Assembly: GCA_048270185.1 (NCBI GenBank)
Contig: JBLWTJ010000003.1
Span: forward strand, 1-64,000
DNA length: 64,000 nucleotides
Direction: 5' to 3'
From: Bacteriovoracaceae bacterium
GTDB lineage: Bacteria; Bdellovibrionota; Bacteriovoracia; Bacteriovoracales; Bacteriovoracaceae
Notes under the pieces: generated by a model
What the model was told of the DNA's origin: nothing
Databases searched by the model: none
The model's input: only the letters and a program-made list of their open reading frames with translations
Program-made: the position numbers and the translations under genes
In this document: piece after piece, positions 1 to 15,350 of the stretch
How positions within the stretch are numbered: position 1 is the first letter of the stretch
Layout of the letters: each line of letters begins with the position of its first letter

Positions 1-118
1 TGAAAACACAAGAAAAAGAGCATCGATACATTCACCATTAACCATCTTCTTAATTACAAAATAAAGATTAAACATAAATAAAAATAATAGGCTGAATAAT
101 TAGTCAAAGGAGATTTAT

Positions 119-1036
119 ATTAAAAATTTAGCATTTAAGAATGAGGATGAAGAAAATTTTAAATTAAAGAAGAAGTACTTTAAGAAACTAAAAAAACTAA
201 AAGAAGTTGAAGCTTATTCTTATAAGAGAAAAGTAGCAGGTAAGAAGACTTATGTCTTCTCCAAAGAATCTTTAGAAGATGTCCAATTAGGGTACCAAAT
301 TCTTTTCTCTATATTGAAATATATTGAAATGGGAAGAGAAGAAAAGCTTAAGTACAAGTACCTAGAGTCAGTAGGAGGACTAAAGGAATTTATCAGAAAA
401 GGTGGAATTATCACAATCTTAGTTGATGGTAAGAGTGTCATTGCTTTTAGTGCTTGTATGCTTCTTGAGAGTGCTAGGTATCAATGTATTACTCTTACAT
501 TGGGGCTTACTTTTGCTATTGCAAATTCGTCATGTAATGAGGTGATGAGACTTCTAAGTGTTGCTTATTTGGAGTATGCATCTGAAATTGCTTTCCAAAA
601 AGAATACAGGCTAAATGCAACATGCCCTCTTAATTGTCCTAGAACTTTTAGTGCTGTAGAGCCTATCTTTAATAAAAACTGTTATCCCTTTAGAGGTAAT
701 TCAGATGCAACATTAAAGGACTCTAGGGAGTTAACTTTTGAAAATTATATTACTCCTAACTTTCCTGAGGCAAAGCTCTTTAAGGGATTTCCAATTTTTT
801 CTAGTAATAAAAAAGAGATGGGGTTTATTGAATCATACCAATTCTCAAAGGCTACAGGGAATTCTAAATATGATGGATTTATTGCAAAGTATATTCATGA
901 TTTTAGTACCCAGGACTTAATCATATCTGGAGACTTATTTGATGAGGTCATAAGTTATTTGAAGTTTATTAATATTATTAAGAATATTGAACATAGCTGT
1001 AATCAGGCTAATAACAAAGGAGACAAAATTGATTAG
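119..1036 (+). CDS. Hypothetical protein, possible GNAT/acyltransferase-like fold; probable ATT start
   Basis: Frame of track ORF 314..1036 is open back to TAG at 101-103. SD AAAGGAG (106-112) lies 6 nt before in-frame ATT at 119. The fold guess rests only on the strand/helix pattern. Confidence 0.6.
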   Translation: MKNLAFKNEDEENFKLKKKYFKKLKKLKEVEAYSYKRKVAGKKTYVFSKESLEDVQLGYQILFSILKYIEMGREEKLKYKYLESVGGLKEFIRKGGIITILVDGKSVIAFSACMLLESARYQCITLTLGLTFAIANSSCNEVMRLLSVAYLEYASEIAFQKEYRLNATCPLNCPRTFSAVEPIFNKNCYPFRGNSDATLKDSRELTFENYITPNFPEAKLFKGFPIFSSNKKEMGFIESYQFSKATGNSKYDGFIAKYIHDFSTQDLIISGDLFDEVISYLKFINIIKNIEHSCNQANNKGDKID

Positions 1037-2000
1037 TAAGAAATTTATTAAAATTCAGGTTAAAAATGTGGAGTCAGAGATTCAAAAGGAAATGGACAGT
1101 GCTTTATTGGCTGTTCTTCAAACAGAAGGAGAGAAGTTTGATATTAAGGTAAAGTCCTTCCTTTCCTTTAAAGATACCTTTAGAAACCTTAGAACATTTA
1201 AGGCAGATGACATCACCCTTAGAATGAGAGAGATGTTTAGTAGGATTTGGTTAACAGCTCCAGAGAAGGAGATGACTAAAAGGTTTAATAAGAAAATTAT
1301 GCTATGTGGGCTTGGGATAAGTTCAAACTTAATACCTCATCTTATTAAAGAAGGTTTCATAACAATAGGGCTAATTGATGGTGATATTGTTGAACACCAG
1401 AATATCTTAAGGCAGAGATTTGAATCTCTTGATATTGGTAAACCTAAAGCAGAGGTTCTCTATGAAAGATATAAGAGAGAGTTTCCCTTTTCTAGGCTTT
1501 CTTATGTGAATGAATATCTTGAGCATTGGTCAACTAAGCTGTTACTTAAGGAGAGTGGTGTTGACTATATGGTAAATGCTATTGATTTTGACAGTGAAGC
1601 CTATCTTTCATCACATAAGCTAGCTCATATGTATTGTGGACTAGAGTTATTTCCATTTGTTCTTGGGGATATTGGAGTTGTCATTGCTGTTGATAGAACA
1701 TGTCCAACATTTGAAGAATATTTTAAAACAAGTAATCCTGAAGAGATGAAGTTTAAAATAATTCAACACTGTATAGATGAAGTTAAGAAGTCATGTGATG
1801 ACTATGATAGGAATCAGCTTGATAATTACTTTAATGAGTATCTAAAAAGTGGGCTATTTCATCACTCTGACCCACAATGTGACAATGCTGTTCAGAAAAT
1901 AGCTTCACTAATAGTTAGTATACTTAAAAAGGATACAAGAAATGAAGGTAAAGATAGAGAGAAGTTGTTTAAGTTATTTCCAGAAATCAATTTCTATTAA
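1029..2000 (+). CDS. ThiF/E1-like adenylyltransferase family protein
   Basis: KIMLCGLG..LIDGDIVEHQNILRQ..DIGKPKAE..NAID motifs. SD AAAGGAG (1016-1022) lies 6 nt before TTG at 1029. Confidence 0.85.
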   Translation: MISKKFIKIQVKNVESEIQKEMDSALLAVLQTEGEKFDIKVKSFLSFKDTFRNLRTFKADDITLRMREMFSRIWLTAPEKEMTKRFNKKIMLCGLGISSNLIPHLIKEGFITIGLIDGDIVEHQNILRQRFESLDIGKPKAEVLYERYKREFPFSRLSYVNEYLEHWSTKLLLKESGVDYMVNAIDFDSEAYLSSHKLAHMYCGLELFPFVLGDIGVVIAVDRTCPTFEEYFKTSNPEEMKFKIIQHCIDEVKKSCDDYDRNQLDNYFNEYLKSGLFHHSDPQCDNAVQKIASLIVSILKKDTRNEGKDREKLFKLFPEINFY

Positions 2001-2001
2001 A

Positions 2002-2676
2002 TTATTCTATATTATGTAAGGCAAGGCTTCCTTTTTTGGACTTTGCCTTAATTCCAAAGCATTTAATCTTCTTATTTAAATTACTAATATGAGTCGCTAA
2101 ATTATTAGCTGACATATTGCTATTTGCCCCCCAGATATCATCGATGATTTCTTCAATAATAACATCTTTTTGAGATAATATCTTTGAAATGAGTAGAACC
2201 TCTTTATGTGTGAGCTGAACTTCTATTCCTAATTTGGATATTGTAAATCTTGTATGATCAATATTAATTCCAAATGAGTTTCTTGAATCATTTATATTAG
2301 TCTTAGTTGGCGAGATCTTGTTAAGAATTCTCATTCTTTTTACACTCCAAGGCATATCTGGAGTAAGAAGTTCACCTGAGCCATACTTCAGTGCTTCAAG
2401 CATTAACTCTTCATCAATAGTCTCTGAGAAGAAGAATGTTGGTTGACCTTTAAAATTATCCATTTGAGAAAGGCGTTGAAATAATTGAAAACCATCAAGA
2501 AATGGCATCATAATATCTAAAACTAATACGTCATAATCGATAAATCGGGCTTCATTGAGAGCTTCAAGAGGATTGGAGAAAGTTTTTATCTTGTATCCTT
2601 CAATTTGTATATTTTCGACAAAATCGTTTATCTTGCCTTCATTATCATCAATGTAAAGTATTCTCTTAATGTCCAT
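2002..2676 (-). CDS. Response regulator (receiver plus winged-helix, OmpR-like)
   Basis: ILYIDD, VLDIMMPFLDG receiver motifs; C-terminal LTHKE..IWG..THISNLNKK. ATG at 2676 fits the domain start. Confidence 0.88.
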   Translation of the reverse strand: MDIKRILYIDDNEGKINDFVENIQIEGYKIKTFSNPLEALNEARFIDYDVLVLDIMMPFLDGFQLFQRLSQMDNFKGQPTFFFSETIDEELMLEALKYGSGELLTPDMPWSVKRMRILNKISPTKTNINDSRNSFGINIDHTRFTISKLGIEVQLTHKEVLLISKILSQKDVIIEEIIDDIWGANSNMSANNLATHISNLNKKIKCFGIKAKSKKGSLALHNIE

Positions 2677-2776
2677 GAAAATATTGTGACATGCATTATC
2701 TAATAGGTAAATATCGACTAAAAAAATTATCTCTAGGGCCATTGCTAGAGTGCATCATATAGTGGAGAATCTATTT

Positions 2777-3901
2777 ATGTTTAATATTTCAAAATACTTA
2801 GAACCAGAAGAAGCAAGACTATTTAAAGTAATAATGGCCATTGCACTTACGCTTTTGCTTGTTATTATATGGGATATCGTTGGTATTAAAGTTGAAGTGA
2901 CAGCTTTTTATATTATTCAAAAAGCGATATTTATTTTTGGACCTATGCTAGTCTTCTTTATTCCTCGTTTAAATTATAAAGTTAAGCATACAATCATCGC
3001 GTGTCTTTATTATCTATATGCATATATTAATTCAATCTATGTTGATAGTAGTTATTTTACGGCCTTTATCCAGTTCTATCTTGGTTGTGTTTTCATTCTT
3101 AGATATAATACTTTAGGCTTTGCGATAAGCCATGCTGTAGGGTTCATTCTATATTTTCTTGTTCTAATTGATCAACAATCAAAGTTATCGATGGTCGAAT
3201 TCGATCAAATGGCCAAGATGATGAATGGTGCGGTTTACCCAATCTTTTTCATCACCGTCATGATTTATTTCTATATTAGAAGAAAAGAGGCAGATGATCA
3301 GGTTAAGTCTGAGTTCTTTAGACAAGTTGGGCAAAATGTCGGCTTTATCCTTCATGAAATTAAACAACCGCTTAAGCAATTGCAATTTGCACAAAATGAT
3401 CAAACTCTAACGGAAGTTAATGAGCTTCTTGAGACCGCAAATATTCTATGGCCTAGTGGAAAGAGTAGTAATGCAGTTAAAGTCGATTTAAATATTAGAG
3501 AAGTTATAAATGGAATTATTTCTGAATTTGATTCTTATACAAAATTTTTGAATATTGAAATTTCTGTTTTTGAAGAGGATCATTTCATTAGAAGTAATCG
3601 AGCAATTCTACGAATTATTATAAAAAATATTATTAAGAATGCTCTTGAAGAAATTGCAGGTAATGAAGGTGAAAATTACTTGAAAATTAAATTACATAGC
3701 GATCATTCAATCGTGATAAAGAATAATATCAGTAAGAAAGTAAATATTAACAAAGTCTTTGATGCTGGCTATTCAACGAAGAGGCACGTTGCTAATAAGG
3801 GCCTAGGTCTCTACATCTGTAAAAACCTAAGTGATAAAATTGGTACTAAACTTAGTGCATACTCAAATAAATCTGAATTTGTCGTTAAAATTAAATTTTA
3901 A
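2777..3901 (+). CDS. Multi-TM sensor histidine kinase
   Basis: About 6 hydrophobic segments, H-box LHEIKQP, N-box NIIKNALE, GYSTK..GLGLY. ATG 2777 preferred to GTG 2750. Confidence 0.88.
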   Translation: MFNISKYLEPEEARLFKVIMAIALTLLLVIIWDIVGIKVEVTAFYIIQKAIFIFGPMLVFFIPRLNYKVKHTIIACLYYLYAYINSIYVDSSYFTAFIQFYLGCVFILRYNTLGFAISHAVGFILYFLVLIDQQSKLSMVEFDQMAKMMNGAVYPIFFITVMIYFYIRRKEADDQVKSEFFRQVGQNVGFILHEIKQPLKQLQFAQNDQTLTEVNELLETANILWPSGKSSNAVKVDLNIREVINGIISEFDSYTKFLNIEISVFEEDHFIRSNRAILRIIIKNIIKNALEEIAGNEGENYLKIKLHSDHSIVIKNNISKKVNINKVFDAGYSTKRHVANKGLGLYICKNLSDKIGTKLSAYSNKSEFVVKIKF

Positions 3902-8772: not shown

Positions 8773-9631
8773 CCGCATTCATTAGTTTTTCATTAAATAG
8801 CTTTATGTGTTCCCTTTGATACTCCCACTGGTGAAGATAGAGGGGAACACTAAAATCCTTAACAGGATTTAGCTGCACTAATTGTTTCTTCTTCATTTCT
8901 TTTTCCATATCAATAAATGGAAGTAGTCCATAGCCAAAACCACCAAGTATTGCTTTCTTAAAACTTGGAACAGATGGCATAAGATTAATCTTTGTAATCT
9001 TATCGATTTTGAAATTTTCTTTTAGATAAGTATGTTGGGCCTTATCGTACTTATCAAAGACTACAAGTGGCGCTTGGGCGAGGGAGTTTTTATTAACACC
9101 ATCCTTAAAATGTCTTTGGTAGAACTTCTTTGAACAAACCAGAGAATAGACCATATCCCCAAGATGTGTTGTTGTGTGATTAGGAAGTGGTTTTGATTCG
9201 GAACTAATACACATATCCACTTGGCCACTCTTTAAATACTTTAAAGTGTTATCTTGATCATCGGCAATAATTTGTAATGTTATAACTTGTGAGAGCTTAT
9301 TATCTGAAAGAACATCGAGAAAGAATAAATCGAGGCTATCTCGATTGACAGCAAGTTTTATTGTGGGCCGAGTCTTCTTTGTATCAAAGTCTTCCATAAT
9401 CTCATTTTCTAAACTTGTTACTTTTCTAAGAAGATTGAGATAGCTCTTACCATCCTCTGTCGCATGATAAGGAGCATTCCTAACCAATAATTTCTTACCT
9501 AAATAAGATTCAAAGTTTTGTATTCTTTGAGTCACTGCCGATTGAGATATGCCAATTGCTTTGGCCGCTAAATCAAAACTTTGGTATTCGATAACCGCCT
9601 GTAGGGCCCTAAGAGCATGATAATCAATCAT
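8756..9631 (-). CDS. argP: LysR regulator ArgP/LysG
   Basis: DYHALRALQAVI..SFDLAA..SQSAVTQRI, LAVNRDSL, DDQDNT; divergent from a LysE-family exporter. Confidence 0.88.
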   Translation of the reverse strand: MIDYHALRALQAVIEYQSFDLAAKAIGISQSAVTQRIQNFESYLGKKLLVRNAPYHATEDGKSYLNLLRKVTSLENEIMEDFDTKKTRPTIKLAVNRDSLDLFFLDVLSDNKLSQVITLQIIADDQDNTLKYLKSGQVDMCISSESKPLPNHTTTHLGDMVYSLVCSKKFYQRHFKDGVNKNSLAQAPLVVFDKYDKAQHTYLKENFKIDKITKINLMPSVPSFKKAILGGFGYGLLPFIDMEKEMKKKQLVQLNPVKDFSVPLYLHQWEYQREHIKLFNEKLMNAAKSLA

Positions 9632-9724
9632 TAGTTTTCCTTATTAGAGATCAGAATTATTAATTTAACTTATATCAGGTTTTCCATTAAATTGCGACCT
9701 ATAGACAGACTCGGCAGGTTTTAT

Positions 9725-10360
9725 ATGGAATTTTTTACTCAAGGTTTTTTATTGCAAGCAAGCTTAATTCTAGCATTGGGTGCACAAAATTTATTTTTAA
9801 TTGATATTGGCACAAAGAAAAAGAACCACTTCTTAGCAGCCGCTATTTGCTCTGTCTGTGATATGGCCTTGATCCTATTGGCCGTTCTTGGAGCCTCTGG
9901 CTACATTGTGAAGACTATCGAGTTTAAGGTTGCCATAGGACTTTTAGGAGCGTCTTTCCTTCTTTATTATGCTGTCACAAAATTTGCTGAATCAATTAAA
10001 GGTGTGAAGACAAACAAGAATGACCAGAAGTTTGCCCTCTCTCGTCGAATTGTTATCCTGACAACGCTAAGTTTTACTCTTCTTAACCCACACGTTTATA
10101 TTGATGCCTTCTTTCTTATTGGCGGTTATTCAACTCGCTTTGATTTAGTTCAGCATCGTTTCTTCTTTGGGTTAGGGGCCGGAGTTTTTTCTATCGTTTG
10201 GTTCTACTTCCTAGTAAGTTTTTCTTCGAAGTTCTCTCATATTTTAACAAAGGAAAAGAACCTAAGAATTACTTCATTTGCCACTGCAATTATTCTCGGA
10301 TATTTAGCGCATAAGCTGGGGACAGAGTCAGTTAGTGATTTTATTAAAATTCTATCTTAG
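9725..10360 (+). CDS. argO: LysE/ArgO amino-acid exporter
   Basis: ASLILALGAQN and TLLNPHVYID motifs; ATG at 9725. Confidence 0.88.
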   Translation: MEFFTQGFLLQASLILALGAQNLFLIDIGTKKKNHFLAAAICSVCDMALILLAVLGASGYIVKTIEFKVAIGLLGASFLLYYAVTKFAESIKGVKTNKNDQKFALSRRIVILTTLSFTLLNPHVYIDAFFLIGGYSTRFDLVQHRFFFGLGAGVFSIVWFYFLVSFSSKFSHILTKEKNLRITSFATAIILGYLAHKLGTESVSDFIKILS

Positions 10361-10426
10361 TGCTGTAAAATAAAAATATTGTATATTATAATAAAACCCA
10401 AATCTACTTTAAGGCAGGGTTATAAT

Positions 10427-11212
10427 ATGCGAAACATTTTATTTTTATCTTTGTTTATTCTATTCTTGAGTTCTTGTGGGCACTATCGAACAACAATTCC
10501 ATATGATTATAAACTAGAAAGTGTTCTCTCTAAGTATAAGAATAGACCAATTCGTGTAGATTTTAAAACAAACTACTATCAAAATAACTTAAGTTTTGAT
10601 GTTGGCCAACATTTATTAAATCATAATTATAAGGTTATCTATACAAGCAAAAAGGAAGTATCAGAAGGTGAGATGATCCTAGAAGGTAATGCAATAAATT
10701 ACTTCCGTTTTGAAAAATGTTTAAAAGATGCTGAACCTAACTGCTATCGAAGACAATCGAATATTACTATTATACTTTCTGAAGGAAAAGACGGAACAGT
10801 CGTTTATTCAAAAGCTCTTAATCTCAATCAAGATGTTTGGAGTGCTTATAAGACTGATATTGATGAGTATAAGAGTGAATTTTATCAAAAAATTGTTTCA
10901 GGTATTACTGACATAATTGCGAAGGAAACTCATTTAGTTAATGTTCCATTTGTCACAGATGAAGAAATTCCAAAATTAAATGAAATAAGGAAGCGCTATA
11001 CTCGTGATACTTTAAACGCAACTTTAAAAGAACTTAAGGATCTGGAGAAAGGAGCTAGTCCAAAGTTAAAAGAAGCACTAATAATCAATCAAGCTTCACT
11101 TCATTATATTTCTGGAAATAAAAAGATGGCAAAGAAGTTAATCAATAGTACTAGTAGTCAGTATTATCAAGAATACTATAATGGACTAGTCTACGCGATG
11201 AGTATCTATTAA
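10427..11212 (+). CDS. Hypothetical lipoprotein
   Basis: MRNILFLSLFILFLSSC lipobox from ATG 10427. Confidence 0.75.
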   Translation: MRNILFLSLFILFLSSCGHYRTTIPYDYKLESVLSKYKNRPIRVDFKTNYYQNNLSFDVGQHLLNHNYKVIYTSKKEVSEGEMILEGNAINYFRFEKCLKDAEPNCYRRQSNITIILSEGKDGTVVYSKALNLNQDVWSAYKTDIDEYKSEFYQKIVSGITDIIAKETHLVNVPFVTDEEIPKLNEIRKRYTRDTLNATLKELKDLEKGASPKLKEALIINQASLHYISGNKKMAKKLINSTSSQYYQEYYNGLVYAMSIY

Positions 11213-11262
11213 GCTGATATAAGTCATATTTAGTTTGGCCATGACTTGTTCGATAAGCTAGC

Positions 11263-11592
11263 ATGGCGCAAAGTAAGAGAAACTTAAAAGAATTCCTAAA
11301 TTACTTAGATAGTGATGACACTTTCTGTATTCTAGATTCAACTGATCTAGCAGCACCTTATTCATATAGTGAGGATCTTCTTTTCTTTTTAAAAGACTTT
11401 GAAAATACCTGCAACCAAGAGCTTAAATCTGAGTATGTATTAGAGAATTTAAAAAGCCTTTCAATTGAAGACCTCGAATCATCAATTGCTCAATATTGTA
11501 CTGAGGAAGAGACGAGACCTGGAACTATCTCATCTTTGCTAAATTCAGGTTTTATTAAGAAAGTTGTTAAAGAGTTATTAAATCGAAAATAA
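11263..11592 (+). CDS. Hypothetical protein
   Basis: 109-aa ORF filling the gap between genes. Confidence 0.6.
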   Translation: MAQSKRNLKEFLNYLDSDDTFCILDSTDLAAPYSYSEDLLFFLKDFENTCNQELKSEYVLENLKSLSIEDLESSIAQYCTEEETRPGTISSLLNSGFIKKVVKELLNRK

Positions 11593-11641
11593 GTAAAACA
11601 TCCTCTGTCTTATCATCTTTTTATTATGATAAAATATTGTC

Positions 11642-11839
11642 ATGATAAAAACTTTAATAACAATAATTCTCACAATTATTTTCCTCGTTCCATTCTTTTC
11701 GACGCCTATTGGCGAAGAACTCTACCTCTCATATCAGAGTACTGATCTCTATCGATCAATTTACTGTCAGTATGTGGAGTGGTTTGGGGCCGAAGGCTTT
11801 GATAAGATCAAGTTTGCGGTTCAGTGTAAGATCCTGTAA
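11642..11839 (+). CDS. Small membrane-anchored hypothetical protein
   Basis: 65 aa, hydrophobic N-terminus, two Cys. Confidence 0.55.
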   Translation: MIKTLITIILTIIFLVPFFSTPIGEELYLSYQSTDLYRSIYCQYVEWFGAEGFDKIKFAVQCKIL

Positions 11840-11893
11840 TCACACAACCAGACTTCTTTTATCTTGAGTAATATTCTTCGGTGTGGCATAGTG

Positions 11894-11921
11894 TAGAGCT
11901 AATGTCTAGACAGGTTGTCTA
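11894..11921. promoter_or_regulatory. Putative TetR operator (TAGACA-ggt-TGTCTA plus overlapping imperfect copy)
   Basis: Perfect dyad at 11907-11921 and imperfect TAGAgc-taa-TGTCTA at 11894-11908, just before the TetR gene. Confidence 0.55.
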
Positions 11922-11934
11922 TAACTGAGGTTGT

Positions 11935-12519
11935 ATGAAACAAGAATCGAAAGATGCCATTTTTGATGGGGTACTCGAGCTCATGGAAAATGAGTCCATT
12001 CTCGATATTTCTGTTTCTAAATTAAAAAGACACACCGGGCTTTCGACGGGAACATTCTATTATCATTTTCCAAATGGCATTGAAGATATCTTTCGCGAGT
12101 TATTTATTAAGCTTACTAGTGGATTAAGAAAGAAAGTTTTTTCTGCTGCTTATAACTCATCTTCTGTTGAAGAAACATTAGAGAGTATTGTTGTCACTTA
12201 CTTTGATTGGCACCAATCTAATATCCGAGAAAGTAACTTTTTTTGGGTAGTATCGGAATCAGGCTTTAGCCAGGTTCGTGAGTTAATGGTTAGTGAGTAC
12301 AAATTACTCTCAAGTAAGGTTTACGAAATACTTGATGAGCAGGCAGGTAAAGATGATGTTAAGATCGTCGGCCACTATATTTTAGATGCTATACTATTTG
12401 GTGCGGCCCGTGAGTTTATCCATTCATGGATTGAGCGTGGACGAAAAAAGAAAGAAATAAATAATTTAAAAGAAGAATTTATTAACACACTTTATCGTGC
12501 ATGCATTCAGGTGAGCTAA
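11935..12519 (+). CDS. TetR/AcrR-family regulator
   Basis: N-terminal HTH ISVSKL..TGLSTGTFYYHF. Confidence 0.88.
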   Translation: MKQESKDAIFDGVLELMENESILDISVSKLKRHTGLSTGTFYYHFPNGIEDIFRELFIKLTSGLRKKVFSAAYNSSSVEETLESIVVTYFDWHQSNIRESNFFWVVSESGFSQVRELMVSEYKLLSSKVYEILDEQAGKDDVKIVGHYILDAILFGAAREFIHSWIERGRKKKEINNLKEEFINTLYRACIQVS

Positions 12520-13040
12520 TGAAATACACTAAGGACTATTGGGAGTATTTAAATAAGGATTACGAGCAATACGTCATTCGCGCCGTTAATGGCCTTGATC
12601 GTGATGGCTACATCGAAGCTTTTAATATGTCTTCTCGTAAGACTCTAACAAACCGATTTCTTGCCGCAAAGAAAGGTTTAACAGATGATGATCTTAAGAT
12701 GCTGACTGAACCAGATTATGTGGATCATGTTGCCATCGTAATTATAAAAGAACAGGAAGAAGGCTTTCTTCCAATCGCTTCAACTCGCTTCTTTAGAGAT
12801 TATAGTGGTTCTGATAAAGCTGAGTTTTCAGTTGCTGTCGTCGATCAGGAACAAGGCAAGGGATTTGGTGGAATAATTCTTGATCACTTAATTGAGGCGG
12901 CCAAAGAGCGTGGAATAAAAGAATTATATGGTACTGCAAGTGTAAATAATGGTGCCATTTTAAATTTATTAAAAAGTCGCGGTGAAGTTGTTGTTGAACA
13001 TGAAACAACTGGAGTCGTGAATATGAGATTAAAAATATAG
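12519..13040 (+). CDS. GNAT acetyltransferase (Pat-like GNAT domain)
   Basis: DYVDHVAIV, AEFSVAVVDQEQGKGFG; TAATG coupling to TetR. Confidence 0.85.
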   Translation: MKYTKDYWEYLNKDYEQYVIRAVNGLDRDGYIEAFNMSSRKTLTNRFLAAKKGLTDDDLKMLTEPDYVDHVAIVIIKEQEEGFLPIASTRFFRDYSGSDKAEFSVAVVDQEQGKGFGGIILDHLIEAAKERGIKELYGTASVNNGAILNLLKSRGEVVVEHETTGVVNMRLKI

Positions 13041-13048
13041 GATTTTTT

Positions 13049-14698
13049 ATGGAAAAAGTTTGGCAAAAAAATTACCCAGAGGGTGCTGCATTCGAAATTA
13101 ACCCAGATCAATACAACAGTGTTGTTGAAGTTATCAATGAGACATGTGAAAAGTATAGTGATCGTACTGCATTTATTAATATGGACGTTTCACTGACATT
13201 TCGTGAAGTTCAAGAAAAATCTGATGCATTTGCAAACTACTTAATCAATGACCTTAATCTTAAGAAGGGTGACGTCATTATGATTCAAATGCCAAACCTT
13301 CTCCAGTATCCAGTCGCTCTTTATGGTGCATTTAAAGCGGGTCTTATTGTTGTAAATACAAATCCACTTTATACGACAAGAGAAATTAAGAAGGTTTTAG
13401 ATGATAGTGGAGCAAAGGCGATTGTTATTTGTTCAAACTTTGTTTCAAAACTTGAAGAGGTCGTGGCCGATAGTAAAATTGAACATATTATAACTACTCA
13501 AATTGGAGACTTTTTTCCATTTGTGAAAAGAACTCTCGTTAATTTTGTCATTAAGAATATAAAGAAGATGGTTCCAACCTATAAAGGAAGCTACACTTCA
13601 TTAAATGAGGCCATTGCAAAAGGTGCACAATCAAAGGCCACATATCCAAAGCTTTCAAATACTGATACGGCCTTATTTCAATATACAGGTGGAACAACAG
13701 GAAAGACAAAAGCAGCAGTTCTTACACATCGAAATGTTATTGCCAATATGTTACAAATGGCCGTTTGGATTAGTGATGCAACAGATGGTGAGACAGTTAA
13801 AGTTTTAGCGCCTCTTCCAATCTATCATGTTTTCACTCTTTCCGTTAATATCTTTGGATTCTTCTACTTAGGTCAAGCGAACTTATTAATTACGAATCCT
13901 CGAGATCTTCCATCTGTTGTTAAGGATATAAAGAATCATAAGCCTAAAGTTGCGACGATTGTTAATACTCTTTTACAGGCACTTGTTGCAAATGAAGAGT
14001 TTCAAAAGCTTGATCTAAGCTACATGAAATTGAGTGTTGCTGGTGGAATGGCCCTTAAAACTTCTGTAAAGAATAAGTGGGAAGTTCTCACTCATTCTAA
14101 AGTTATTGAAGGTTATGGGCTAACAGAGGCTTCGCCTGTTGTGACATGTAATCCTCCAAAGAATGATATTGCAGGCTCAATTGGAATACCAATCCCTTCT
14201 ACAAATATTAAAATCATTGATGAAGATGAAAATGAATTAGGCTTTAATGAAGAAGGAGAACTTTGTGTTCAAGGTCCTCAGGTTATGAAAGAGTATTGGA
14301 ATCAACCAGAGGAGACTGCCGAAACTTTTACGAAAGATGGATGGCTTAAAACTGGTGACTATGCAACAGTTGATGAAGAAGGATTTGTTAGAATATTAGA
14401 TCGTAAAAAAGATATGATCGTGGTTTCTGGCTTTAACGTTTATCCAAATGAAGTTGAAGAAGTTCTAATGGAATGTAGCGGAGTTCAGGAAGTCGCGGCC
14501 ATCGGTATTGATAGTGATAGATCAGGTCAAATCGTTAAAGTATTTATTGTTAAAGATAAAAAAGACCTTGATGTAAAGGCAGTAAGAGATTTTGCAAAGA
14601 AGAATCTTGCAGCATACAAAATCCCAAAAGAAGTTGAATTTGTAGCTGAGCTTCCAAAGAATAATGTTGGAAAAGTTTTAAGAAGAGAACTTAGATAA
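13049..14698 (+). CDS. fadD: Long-chain fatty acid-CoA ligase
   Basis: QYTGGTTG, EGYGLTEASP, WLKTGD, DRKKDMI, LPKNNVGKVLRR. Confidence 0.93.
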   Translation: MEKVWQKNYPEGAAFEINPDQYNSVVEVINETCEKYSDRTAFINMDVSLTFREVQEKSDAFANYLINDLNLKKGDVIMIQMPNLLQYPVALYGAFKAGLIVVNTNPLYTTREIKKVLDDSGAKAIVICSNFVSKLEEVVADSKIEHIITTQIGDFFPFVKRTLVNFVIKNIKKMVPTYKGSYTSLNEAIAKGAQSKATYPKLSNTDTALFQYTGGTTGKTKAAVLTHRNVIANMLQMAVWISDATDGETVKVLAPLPIYHVFTLSVNIFGFFYLGQANLLITNPRDLPSVVKDIKNHKPKVATIVNTLLQALVANEEFQKLDLSYMKLSVAGGMALKTSVKNKWEVLTHSKVIEGYGLTEASPVVTCNPPKNDIAGSIGIPIPSTNIKIIDEDENELGFNEEGELCVQGPQVMKEYWNQPEETAETFTKDGWLKTGDYATVDEEGFVRILDRKKDMIVVSGFNVYPNEVEEVLMECSGVQEVAAIGIDSDRSGQIVKVFIVKDKKDLDVKAVRDFAKKNLAAYKIPKEVEFVAELPKNNVGKVLRRELR

Positions 14699-14704
14699 AA
14701 AAAT

Positions 14705-14729
14705 AAAGGCCCTTTTAAAGGGCCTTTTT
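14705..14729. terminator. Bidirectional intrinsic terminator
   Basis: AAAGGCCC..GGGCCTTT hairpin with A/T tails between convergent fadD and grxB. Confidence 0.75.
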
Positions 14730-15350
14730 ATATAGAGTTTCAACATTCGTTAATTCTTCCATTCTTAGAATGTAATTATGAACATGTGTTGGAAACTTAA
14801 TCCCATCAACGATTGTTAAAGACCTTAGAATTGCGTAGAGATCAAAGTCGACAATATTTAGTTCATGGCCTTTACTGAGCATTGTATCTAGCTCATCTAA
14901 TAATGGATTAACTTCTTTTAGATAGAGGTCTGTATTCTCGATCATTTCATTTAGATCACCAAAGGCAGCCTTTTCTCTTTCTGTATAGAATTCACGCGAA
15001 AATTTTGTATTGAGCTCCGGAAAATCTGCTTTTGTGAAGCGTGGAATAACAAGACCCAAGGTTGGCTTCCAAATCTCTTTGATCCAATCTTCAATATCTT
15101 CATGAGGATGGTCATCAAAAATTTCTTGGCCGAAATTCTTATCGATATAGCGAACAATATCCATGCTTTCAAATATATGAGTACCATCTTCTTTTTCAAG
15201 GATGGGAACAACTTTTTTTCCTACTAATTTAGTAGGAGTAATTGAGTCACCTTCCATGATGATTTCCTCGACGAAACTTAAATTCTTAAGGCCAAAAATC
15301 ATTCTTGCTTTCACGCAAAAAGGGCAGTGGTCATAGATGTAGAGTTTCAT
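14715..15350 (-). CDS. grxB: Glutaredoxin 2
   Basis: MKLYIYDHCPFCVKARMIFGLK, VPILEK..ESMDIV. Confidence 0.93.
   Translation of the reverse strand: MKLYIYDHCPFCVKARMIFGLKNLSFVEEIIMEGDSITPTKLVGKKVVPILEKEDGTHIFESMDIVRYIDKNFGQEIFDDHPHEDIEDWIKEIWKPTLGLVIPRFTKADFPELNTKFSREFYTEREKAAFGDLNEMIENTDLYLKEVNPLLDELDTMLSKGHELNIVDFDLYAILRSLTIVDGIKFPTHVHNYILRMEELTNVETLYKKAL

Follow-up and report, generated by a model that had tools for sequence, protein, structure and literature searches.

A nearly CG-free two-gene cassette in a Bacteriovoracaceae genome, and the selection against CG that may have shaped it

The window analysed here is 64,000 nucleotides (nt) long and forms the beginning of contig C3 (JBLWTJ010000003.1, positions 1 to 64,000) of a metagenome-assembled genome from a marine member of the Bacteriovoracaceae (GCA_048270185.1, hereafter G000; 30 contigs, 3.35 Mb, 95.9% complete). 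Its first two kilobases hold two overlapping genes, which we call open reading frames (ORFs) 1 and 2, inside a tract that is almost devoid of the dinucleotide CG; we refer to the tract and its genes as the cassette. ORF1 is predicted to encode a divergent GNAT-fold protein and ORF2 an adenylating enzyme of the ThiF/E1 type. A convergent response-regulator gene and a histidine kinase gene follow them (Table 1).

Table 1. Positions of the cassette, its genes and related loci; positions refer to the window unless another contig or locus is named.
Feature	Position	Strand	Remarks
CG-depleted tract	26..2094	.	single CG at 528-529; GATC 0, GGCC 0
Putative Shine-Dalgarno AAGGAG of ORF1	107..112	+	6 nt before ATT 119; predicted from sequence
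ORF1, predicted divergent GNAT-fold protein	119..1036	+	305 amino acids if the start is ATT 119
Sole CG inside the tract	528..529	+	TCG Ser codon of ORF1
Putative Shine-Dalgarno AAGGAG of ORF2	1017..1022	+	inside the end of ORF1; predicted from sequence
ORF2, putative ThiF/E1-type adenylating enzyme	1029..2000	+	323 amino acids from TTG 1029; PF00899
Flanking OmpR-type response regulator, outside the cassette	2002..2742	-	PF00072, PF00486; host-like CG
Hairpin, possible bidirectional terminator	2017..2050	+	between convergent ORF2 and response-regulator gene
Flanking histidine kinase, outside the cassette	2750..3901	+	host-like CG
P0007-type remnant with AbiEii toxin/AbiEi antitoxin pair	L016 (G005:C55) 1501-3106
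Replaced segment	L003 (G009:C56) 9583-14545 vs L033 (G011) 10811-15104
Orphan C5-methyltransferase	G000:C1:546351-547541 (L026 1447-2637)

The ORF1 frame is open from position 104 to 1036 and contains no ATG, GTG or TTG before position 314, a stretch of 70 codons that is homologous to the N-terminus of a relative. The AAGGAG motif and 6-nt spacing found before the ATT codon at position 119 recur before the TTG of ORF2 and before the GTG of an ORF1 homologue in a second genome of the genus (G009), which starts with this GTG (or with an ATG) at the place equivalent to ATT 119. Because this geometry is shared by ORF2 and the G009 homologue, and because a further homologue (P0003) aligns well upstream of position 314, ORF1 probably starts at ATT 119. 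The AlphaFold model of ORF1 has a mean predicted local distance difference test score (pLDDT) of 82 and a predicted template modelling score (pTM) of 0.81, and its best structural match was 5isv (Z = 11.4, 146 amino acids at 3.0 Å). All 50 listed VIA matches are GNAT-fold entries, nearly all annotated as (putative) acetyltransferases, and Foldseek returned 34 matches at E ≤ 0.001, among which all those listed have the GNAT fold (1tiq, E = 2.4e-5). ORF1 matched no family in Pfam, NCBIfam, PADLOC or PHROGs (E ≤ 0.1 or 0.01), and a profile of nine ORF1-family members matched no PDB sequence at E ≤ 1. On the strength of this model, ORF1 is most readily classed as a divergent, GNAT-fold, acyltransferase-like protein.

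The longest ORF2 frame starts at TTG 987 and shares 50 nt with the end of ORF1, and the frame from TTG 1029, which is supported by a Shine-Dalgarno motif, shares 8 nt with it; this layout suggests that translation of the two genes is coupled. ORF2 matched PF00899 with 47.2 bits (cut-off 28.1), and the solved structure closest to it is that of AclA from Tenacibaculum discolor (9egb; phmmer E = 1.7e-10, Foldseek E = 3.3e-11), a protein for which a literature search found no paper. Fold matches at E ≤ 5e-7 comprise AclA, ThiF, Atg7, SAE2, MccB, TcdA and Cap2, the ORF2 model being reliable in the Rossmann core alone (pLDDT 75-92) and low elsewhere. G94-L-G96 forms the glycine-rich nucleotide loop and D117-G-D119 contains the conserved Asp after strand 2; of these residues, G96, D117, G118 and D119 are invariant in an alignment of four sequences. 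All 15 listed NCBIfam equivalogs, including ThiF, MoeB, TcdA, PRTRC ThiF, 6A-MBL Cap2_3 and SAMP E1, scored far below their cut-offs; the best of them was ThiS adenylyltransferase (47.5 bits against a cut-off of 159). As judged from its sequence, ORF2 is a putative AclA-like adenylating enzyme of the ThiF/E1 type.

The two proteins belong together. In the 603-residue relative P0007 an ORF1-like domain is fused to an ORF2-like domain, and ORF2 aligns to the C-terminal half of this protein with E = 1e-35. The fusion of the GNAT and ThiF domains in P0007 indicates that ORF1 and ORF2 form one functional unit. The family defines a rare, previously unannotated enzyme pair, sometimes fused, of a GNAT-fold protein and an E1-like enzyme of the AclA/ThiF type. 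We searched for ORF1 homologues in 61 relatives, 237 family genomes and a phylum sample of 401 genomes. A close homologue was present in two of the 13 genus genomes (G000 and G009) and nowhere else among the family genomes searched. When 1.84 billion cluster representatives were searched exhaustively with a profile, nine ORF1-family members were recovered in total. Translated searches (tblastn) of phages and plasmids returned generic ThiF-domain matches alone, and metagenome contigs gave no match to the relatives' sub-alignments or to single proteins. Two weak, partial archaeal matches in genome contigs were regarded as spurious. A trace of the family persists in a third genome (G005), where the last 42 codons of a P0007-type gene remain, identical to P0007 at 40 of 42 positions and with stop codons upstream, next to a pair of AbiEii toxin and AbiEi antitoxin genes in what looks like a defence-island setting.

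We used direct counts to characterize the CG content of the cassette. Within positions 1-2100, CG occurs at positions 24, 528 and 2095 and nowhere else, and the tract between the outer two has a G+C content of 31.4%. The original prediction that this tract holds one CG and neither GATC nor GGCC, and that other palindromes are present in it, agrees with our counts (AAGCTT 2, GGTACC 1, GAATTC 1, CTAG 8 and TGCA 5). Overlapping windows of 2,069 bp across G000 (n = 32,919) contain 51.7 CGs on average (standard deviation 9.9), compared with one in the tract, and the only windows with fewer than 15 CGs are those that overlap the cassette locus; the genome therefore offers no second 2-kb window as poor in CG, and the original concern that many ordinary windows might be so is not borne out. 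The longest CG-free gap of G000 (1,567 bp) lies inside the tract and the runner-up is 607 bp long. Set against composition-based expectation, the observed/expected ratio (o/e) of CG is 0.02 in the tract and 0.75 genome-wide, and the G009 copy described below has no CG at all; in about 180 kb of examined DNA the next CG-free gap besides these two islands is at most 504 bp long. The left edge of the tract lies 25 bases from the contig end, as the window starts at base 1 of C3. At the right edge, the tract runs for its last 94 bp (positions 2001-2094) over the end of the convergent response-regulator gene, at the 3' side of that gene, and CG-freeness might be due to chance there. The second-lowest CG region of the genome (G000:C2:101000-105000) has 15-18 CGs per 2,069-bp window and an o/e of 0.41 over 4 kb.

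As the tract lies at a contig end of a metagenome-assembled genome, it might be a chimera, contaminating DNA or a synthetic CpG-free construct. Independent assemblies make such an artefact barely conceivable. Run X3 belongs to another study and another sample; one of its contigs covers positions 1-955 and extends about 6.3 kb further upstream, and a second contig of 2,879 bases covers positions 944-3000 and beyond. From run X1, which may be the source sample, a single contig of 7,233 bases spans positions 1-3000 together with 2,942 upstream bases. One to two base differences were seen between the assembly and these contigs. Since both edges of the tract are independently bridged, it is not a chimera. 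Moreover, a natural homologue in another species, only 39% identical, is equally depleted of CG, and the codon usage of the cassette is host-like, neither of which fits a contaminant or a construct. At position 100 the assembly has T and the X1 and X3 contigs have C, probably a consensus or strain difference. Neither paralogues of the cassette genes nor contig-end overlaps were found in G000.

The depletion is not confined to one class of codon. All 24 Arg codons of ORF1 and ORF2 are AGA or AGG, as had been proposed from the sequence at the outset, compared with a host in which 56% of Arg codons are CGN (1,295 long ORFs). When the two proteins were rewritten in host codon usage, they acquired 21.1 and 26.2 CGs on average, with minima of 9 and 13 in 5,000 trials. 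CG occurs zero times or once in every codon phase (1-2, 2-3 and 3-1) of the cassette genes. At codon junctions (phase 3-1) none was observed, against expectations of 8.6 for ORF1, 7.5 for ORF2 and 7.5 for the G009 homologue. In these three genes combined, a C-ending codon stands before a G-starting codon in 0 of 249 cases (host 11.1%) and before other codons in 88 of 676 cases (13.0%; host 16.4%). The non-coding leader at positions 26-118 and the 5' leader in G009 are both CG-free. The absence of CG from all codon phases, junctions and leaders indicates that the depletion acts at the nucleotide level and does not stem from the choice of Arg codons alone. The flanking genes show nothing of the kind: the response-regulator gene has 10 CGs across all phases (6 at junctions, 9.3 expected) and the histidine kinase gene has 12 at junctions (12.5 expected).

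Apart from CG, codon usage in the cassette is host-like. With CG-containing codons left out, ORF1 falls at the 53rd and ORF2 at the 43rd percentile of 1,780 G000 ORFs, the G009 homologue, measured against the codon table of G000, falls at the 23rd, and the G+C content at third codon positions of the cassette genes is typical of the host. The single exception is the share of AGG among AGA and AGG codons, which is 13 of 36 in these genes and 14% in the host.

The copy in G009 shows that the CG-free state recurs in strongly diverged DNA. The G009 homologue of ORF1 is 39% identical in amino acids and 53.6% in nucleotides (for scale, a 766-residue housekeeping-type enzyme is 60% identical between G000 and G009) and lies inside a CG-free gap of 1,274 bp, in a 20-kb locus whose runner-up gap is 347 bp. 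At 112 conserved degenerate residues ORF1 and its homologue share the codon 48 times, where 54.2 matches would be expected at random. Codon sharing at the random level indicates that silent sites are saturated between the two copies, and since they are saturated and CG is nevertheless absent, the CG-free state must have been actively maintained and is not a frozen ancestral sequence. The G009 tract begins within the -35 hexamer of a TTGCGA-17-TATAAT promoter and comprises the GNAT gene and a hydrophilic stub of 60 codons that is translationally coupled to it. The GNAT gene ends in TAG TAG TGA, a coupled layout as in ORF1-ORF2. We tried the stub as a remnant of the ThiF gene and found no support for this identity, as 663-2,690 of 3,000 shuffles scored as well.

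Sister genomes reveal how this copy came to its place. Three of them (G011, G004 and G008) have an intact mnhA-B-C-D operon and no cassette. In G009, mnhABC is replaced by an accessory segment of about 5 kb, and the foreign stub reads in frame into mnhD, which it joins at about codon 2; mnhD itself retains an intact frame of 493 codons with 88-90% identity to its orthologues in the sister genomes. Seen against the empty sites of these close relatives, the cassette in G009 is an insertion. DNA homology with the sister genomes sets in at position 9592 of locus L003 and the first CG lies at position 9583, such that the tract ends at most 9 bp from the insertion junction. CG content is normal in the remaining genes of this segment, which encode a P-type ATPase, a bPH-domain protein and a protein of 127 amino acids. 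A tract edge at a recombination junction, next to neighbours with normal CG, indicates that the CG-freeness belongs to the cassette DNA. A homologue of the bPH-domain gene occurs near the start of another G000 contig (C2:1-2334, L035): this region begins with an orphan gene of 385 codons that is unique to G000 and has 12 CGs in 1.2 kb, continues with the bPH-domain gene (C2:1220-1645) in a CG-free gap of 429 bp, and then has a second response regulator. To judge by the bPH-domain gene, the start of C2 may adjoin the start of C3.

If CG had been erased by mutation, through local methylation and deamination, an excess of TG and CA to match the lost sites would be expected; another CG-specific mutator is a further mutational possibility. 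The genus does have a conserved C5-cytosine methyltransferase, and the genome-wide CG o/e of 0.75 could be taken in the same sense. Neither CA nor TG is raised in the tract, however (1.02 and 1.00, compared with 1.07 and 1.05 genome-wide); CT/AG and CC/GG are. The replacements are AGA and AGG codons for Arg and codons not ending in C before G, both ORFs are intact, and the effect stops within 9 bp of the G009 insertion junction and leaves neighbouring genes unaffected. Because CA and TG are not raised, methylation followed by deamination is rejected, and a mutational origin of any kind is highly improbable. Among the causes originally proposed, local C-deamination is thus not supported, and neither is a CpG-methylating host: the genus has one conserved orphan C5-methyltransferase, but the host keeps a CG o/e of 0.75; the two others, a CG-avoiding donor and escape from methylation or restriction, both survive and are compatible with each other. 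We infer that selection, not a mutational process, removed CG from the cassette.

The avoidance of two further words that was claimed along with that of CG holds less well. GATC does not occur in the tract, where 4.8 would be expected from its own trinucleotide composition and 7.7-8.1 from the host frequency, and it occurs twice in the G009 island; its avoidance is weak and not general to the cassette lineage. The expectation for GGCC from the tract's own trinucleotides is 1.3, so its absence is not significant on that basis, and it acquires meaning only against a footprint in the host. In a Markov model GGCC is the most over-represented host tetramer (1.97-fold) and GGCT/AGCC the most under-represented (0.57-fold). 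The counts of GGCC and of GGCT plus AGCC are 0:12 in the G000 island and 0:5 in the G009 island, compared with 12,131:10,793 in the host; pooled, the islands have 0:17, where the host share of GGCC is 0.53. Among 199 host windows of matched GC content, not one has a GGCC count of zero together with at least 12 GGCT plus AGCC. Both islands therefore lack a second, host-specific compositional footprint, the enrichment of GGCC. The single DNA methyltransferase detected in G000 is the orphan C5 enzyme (Table 1), which has a HaeIII/HhaI/DNMT1-like catalytic core; no cognate nuclease was identified for it. All 13 genus genomes have this enzyme, with 70-89% identity (88% between G000 and G009), far above typical proteins. 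Dam-type (PF02086) and N4/N6 (PF01555) methyltransferases and Vsr (PF03852) were not found in G000, at its 95.9% completeness. The host GGCC/GGCT bias and the conserved orphan methyltransferase may together reflect an undescribed epigenetic or repair footprint. A bias of this type is reportedly attributed to very-short-patch repair in work on E. coli Dcm and Vsr, and the Vsr domain that such a reading needs was among those not found in G000.

Alternatively, selection might act in place and on RNA, such that the transcript of a chromosomal operon is kept CG-free from promoter to terminator and survives an endoribonuclease that cuts at or around CG. Such an RNase could be the host's, a phage's or one licensed by the cassette products, and synthesis of the two proteins could then go on during the destruction of other mRNAs. 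The tract does match a transcription unit: in G009 it starts at the -35/-10 elements of a near-consensus promoter, and in G000 its end lies shortly beyond a hairpin that follows ORF2 (-16.1 kcal/mol, z = -2.54; matched in stability by 2 of 200 shuffles). This hairpin was not called by a consensus terminator scan, a promoter scan found no plus-strand site upstream of ORF1 in the available 118 bases, and positions 1-2800 have no Rfam match. Avoidance that is independent of codon phase and includes leaders is consistent with protection of a transcript, host-like codon usage would be expected of a long-resident gene, and the G005 remnant adjoins an abortive-infection pair. There are also precedents for both halves of the idea: transcripts engineered to lack ACA continue to be translated in the presence of MazF (PMC5408214), and cleavage at 5'-GC-3' has been described for MqsR (PMC9636575). 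Nevertheless, the G009 transcript would continue into the CG-containing mnhD gene without a predicted terminator, an RNase does not explain the missing GGCC footprint, and neither PemK/MazF (PF02452) nor ParE/RelE-superfamily (PF05016) toxins were found in G000. CG is its own reverse complement, so that strand cannot separate selection on RNA from selection on DNA. We regard a transcript-level cause of this kind as possible but doubtful.

A slightly less probable alternative, still worth serious thought, is that each copy was captured very recently from a wholly CG-free phage or other element with the codon usage of the host genus. There would then be no selection on the cassette as such, and its CG-free state would decay in the chromosome. 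The G009 insertion does look recent, in that mnhD is intact and 88-90% identical to its orthologues although mnhABC is gone; the host GGCC/GGCT footprint, too, is absent from both islands. The feature clusters nearest to ORF1 in the Atlas include phage hypothetical proteins, a weak lead (109-134 of 256 features shared). Against such a capture, 50,697 phage records and five scans of 2.9 million viral contigs yielded no relative of ORF1 or ORF2 from a phage or virus, ORF1 belongs to no PHROGs family, no phage genes flank the G009 copy, and the CG-free part of that copy makes up 1.27 kb of an accessory segment of about 5 kb. This alternative has the same ultimate cause as the explanation that we favour, selection on CG in a mobile lineage, and differs from it in where selection acts.

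The explanation that we favour, with a probability of about one half, is that the cassette represents a mobile accessory lineage in which purifying selection has worked over a long time against CG as a nucleotide word, CG being the target of a nuclease-type barrier that the cassette meets as it moves. The tract would be a compact accessory operon that spreads horizontally and brings ribosome-binding sites of its own, encoding a GNAT-fold protein that is translationally coupled to an AclA/ThiF-type enzyme, and the two proteins would act together. Empty sites in G011, G004 and G008, the exact junction in G009 and the patchy occurrence of close ORF1 homologues speak for such mobility. Purifying selection would remove CG from all codon phases, from the junctions between codons and from non-coding flanks, because CG, or the many short sites containing it, would be recognized by the barrier when the cassette moves between cells. 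The agent would accordingly be a nuclease or a restriction-like barrier, selection would act mainly while the cassette is mobile, and some mobile vehicle would carry it. The chromosomal copies in G000 and G009 would be insertions at variable loci that still carry the CG-free signature. A purge of this kind is known from the whole genomes of some lytic phages, and the avoidance of restriction sites has been described in phages (PMC6286503).

Several observations weigh against this explanation. No enzyme that recognizes bare CG has been identified in G000 or elsewhere, and the Dam-type and N4/N6 methyltransferases, Vsr and the toxin families named above were not found in G000. Of about 45 expected CGs, 14.6 belong to 4-bp palindromes and the remaining two thirds or so do not, so that ordinary avoidance of Type II sites would need many different enzymes. 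The 42-codon remnant in G005 contains one junction CG, and CG is present in the more distant GNAT-like genes of G070, of G015 (o/e 0.33) and of G030 (o/e 0.81). The rule that the cassette is CG-free is drawn from two independent copies, those in G000 and G009. The lack of phage, plasmid and viral-contig relatives counts here as well, and neither an integrase nor repeats nor a carrier element were seen at the cassette copies, the upstream side of the G000 copy beyond base 1 being absent from the contig.

It is also conceivable, if unlikely, that the operon is kept CG-free where it is because its function is needed at times when the cell contains an active CG-directed nuclease. An example would be a defence-island module that stays intact and expressible as a CG-free phage shuts the host down with a nuclease cutting CG-containing DNA or RNA. 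If so, this would imply an undescribed CG-specific nuclease in phage-host conflict. With about 25 synonymous sites per gene at which CG could be placed, the cassette is a compact, testable system for finding what recognizes CG in bacteria.

With the E1-like enzymes AclA, MccB of microcin C, Cap2 and ThiF/MoeB, ORF2 shares the ThiF Rossmann core with its G-x-G loop, AclA being the best match by both sequence and fold. In P0007 the E1-like domain is fused C-terminally to a partner domain, as in Cap2. The partner in the cassette, however, has a GNAT fold and is neither an E2 nor a peptide clamp nor a sulfur carrier, and no gene for a precursor peptide, a cGAS/DncV-like nucleotidyltransferase (CD-NTase) or a ubiquitin-like protein is seen beside it. 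We rejected the identity of the pair as Cap2 (an E2-E1 fusion) of a cyclic-oligonucleotide-based antiphage signalling system (CBASS): the partner is GNAT and not E2, an alignment of nine sequences has no invariant Cys, the flanking genes are a response regulator and a histidine kinase, and PADLOC matches cover the E1 part alone.

At the nucleotide level, depletion by deamination of 5-methylcytosine, known from vertebrate genomes and CpG-methylating Mollicutes, has in common with the cassette a strong under-representation of CG. It raises TG and CA and acts genome-wide, in contrast to a single sharp-edged cassette in which TG and CA are not raised. ACA-less mRNAs under MazF provide another likeness, as a transcript-sized unit without one word would resist a sequence-specific endoribonuclease (PMC5408214), and the described specificity of MqsR for GC (PMC9636575) is a precedent for recognition of a dinucleotide. 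The ACA-less case differs in being engineered, and in G000 no MazF/PemK or ParE/RelE-superfamily toxin was detected. To our knowledge, no CG-specific RNase has been described. Restriction-site avoidance in phages (PMC6286503) resembles the cassette in that silent changes, within genes as well as between them, have removed a short word almost completely, and a few other short sites have been lost too. The cassette differs in that what is avoided is a bare dinucleotide and not the site of a known enzyme, in that no phage carrier was found, and in that the purge is confined to an operon of 1.3-2 kb in a bacterial chromosome that has a CG o/e of 0.75 otherwise. Avoidance of short words is known for whole phage genomes, and here it is confined to one small operon of a bacterial chromosome, with edges sharp to the base pair.

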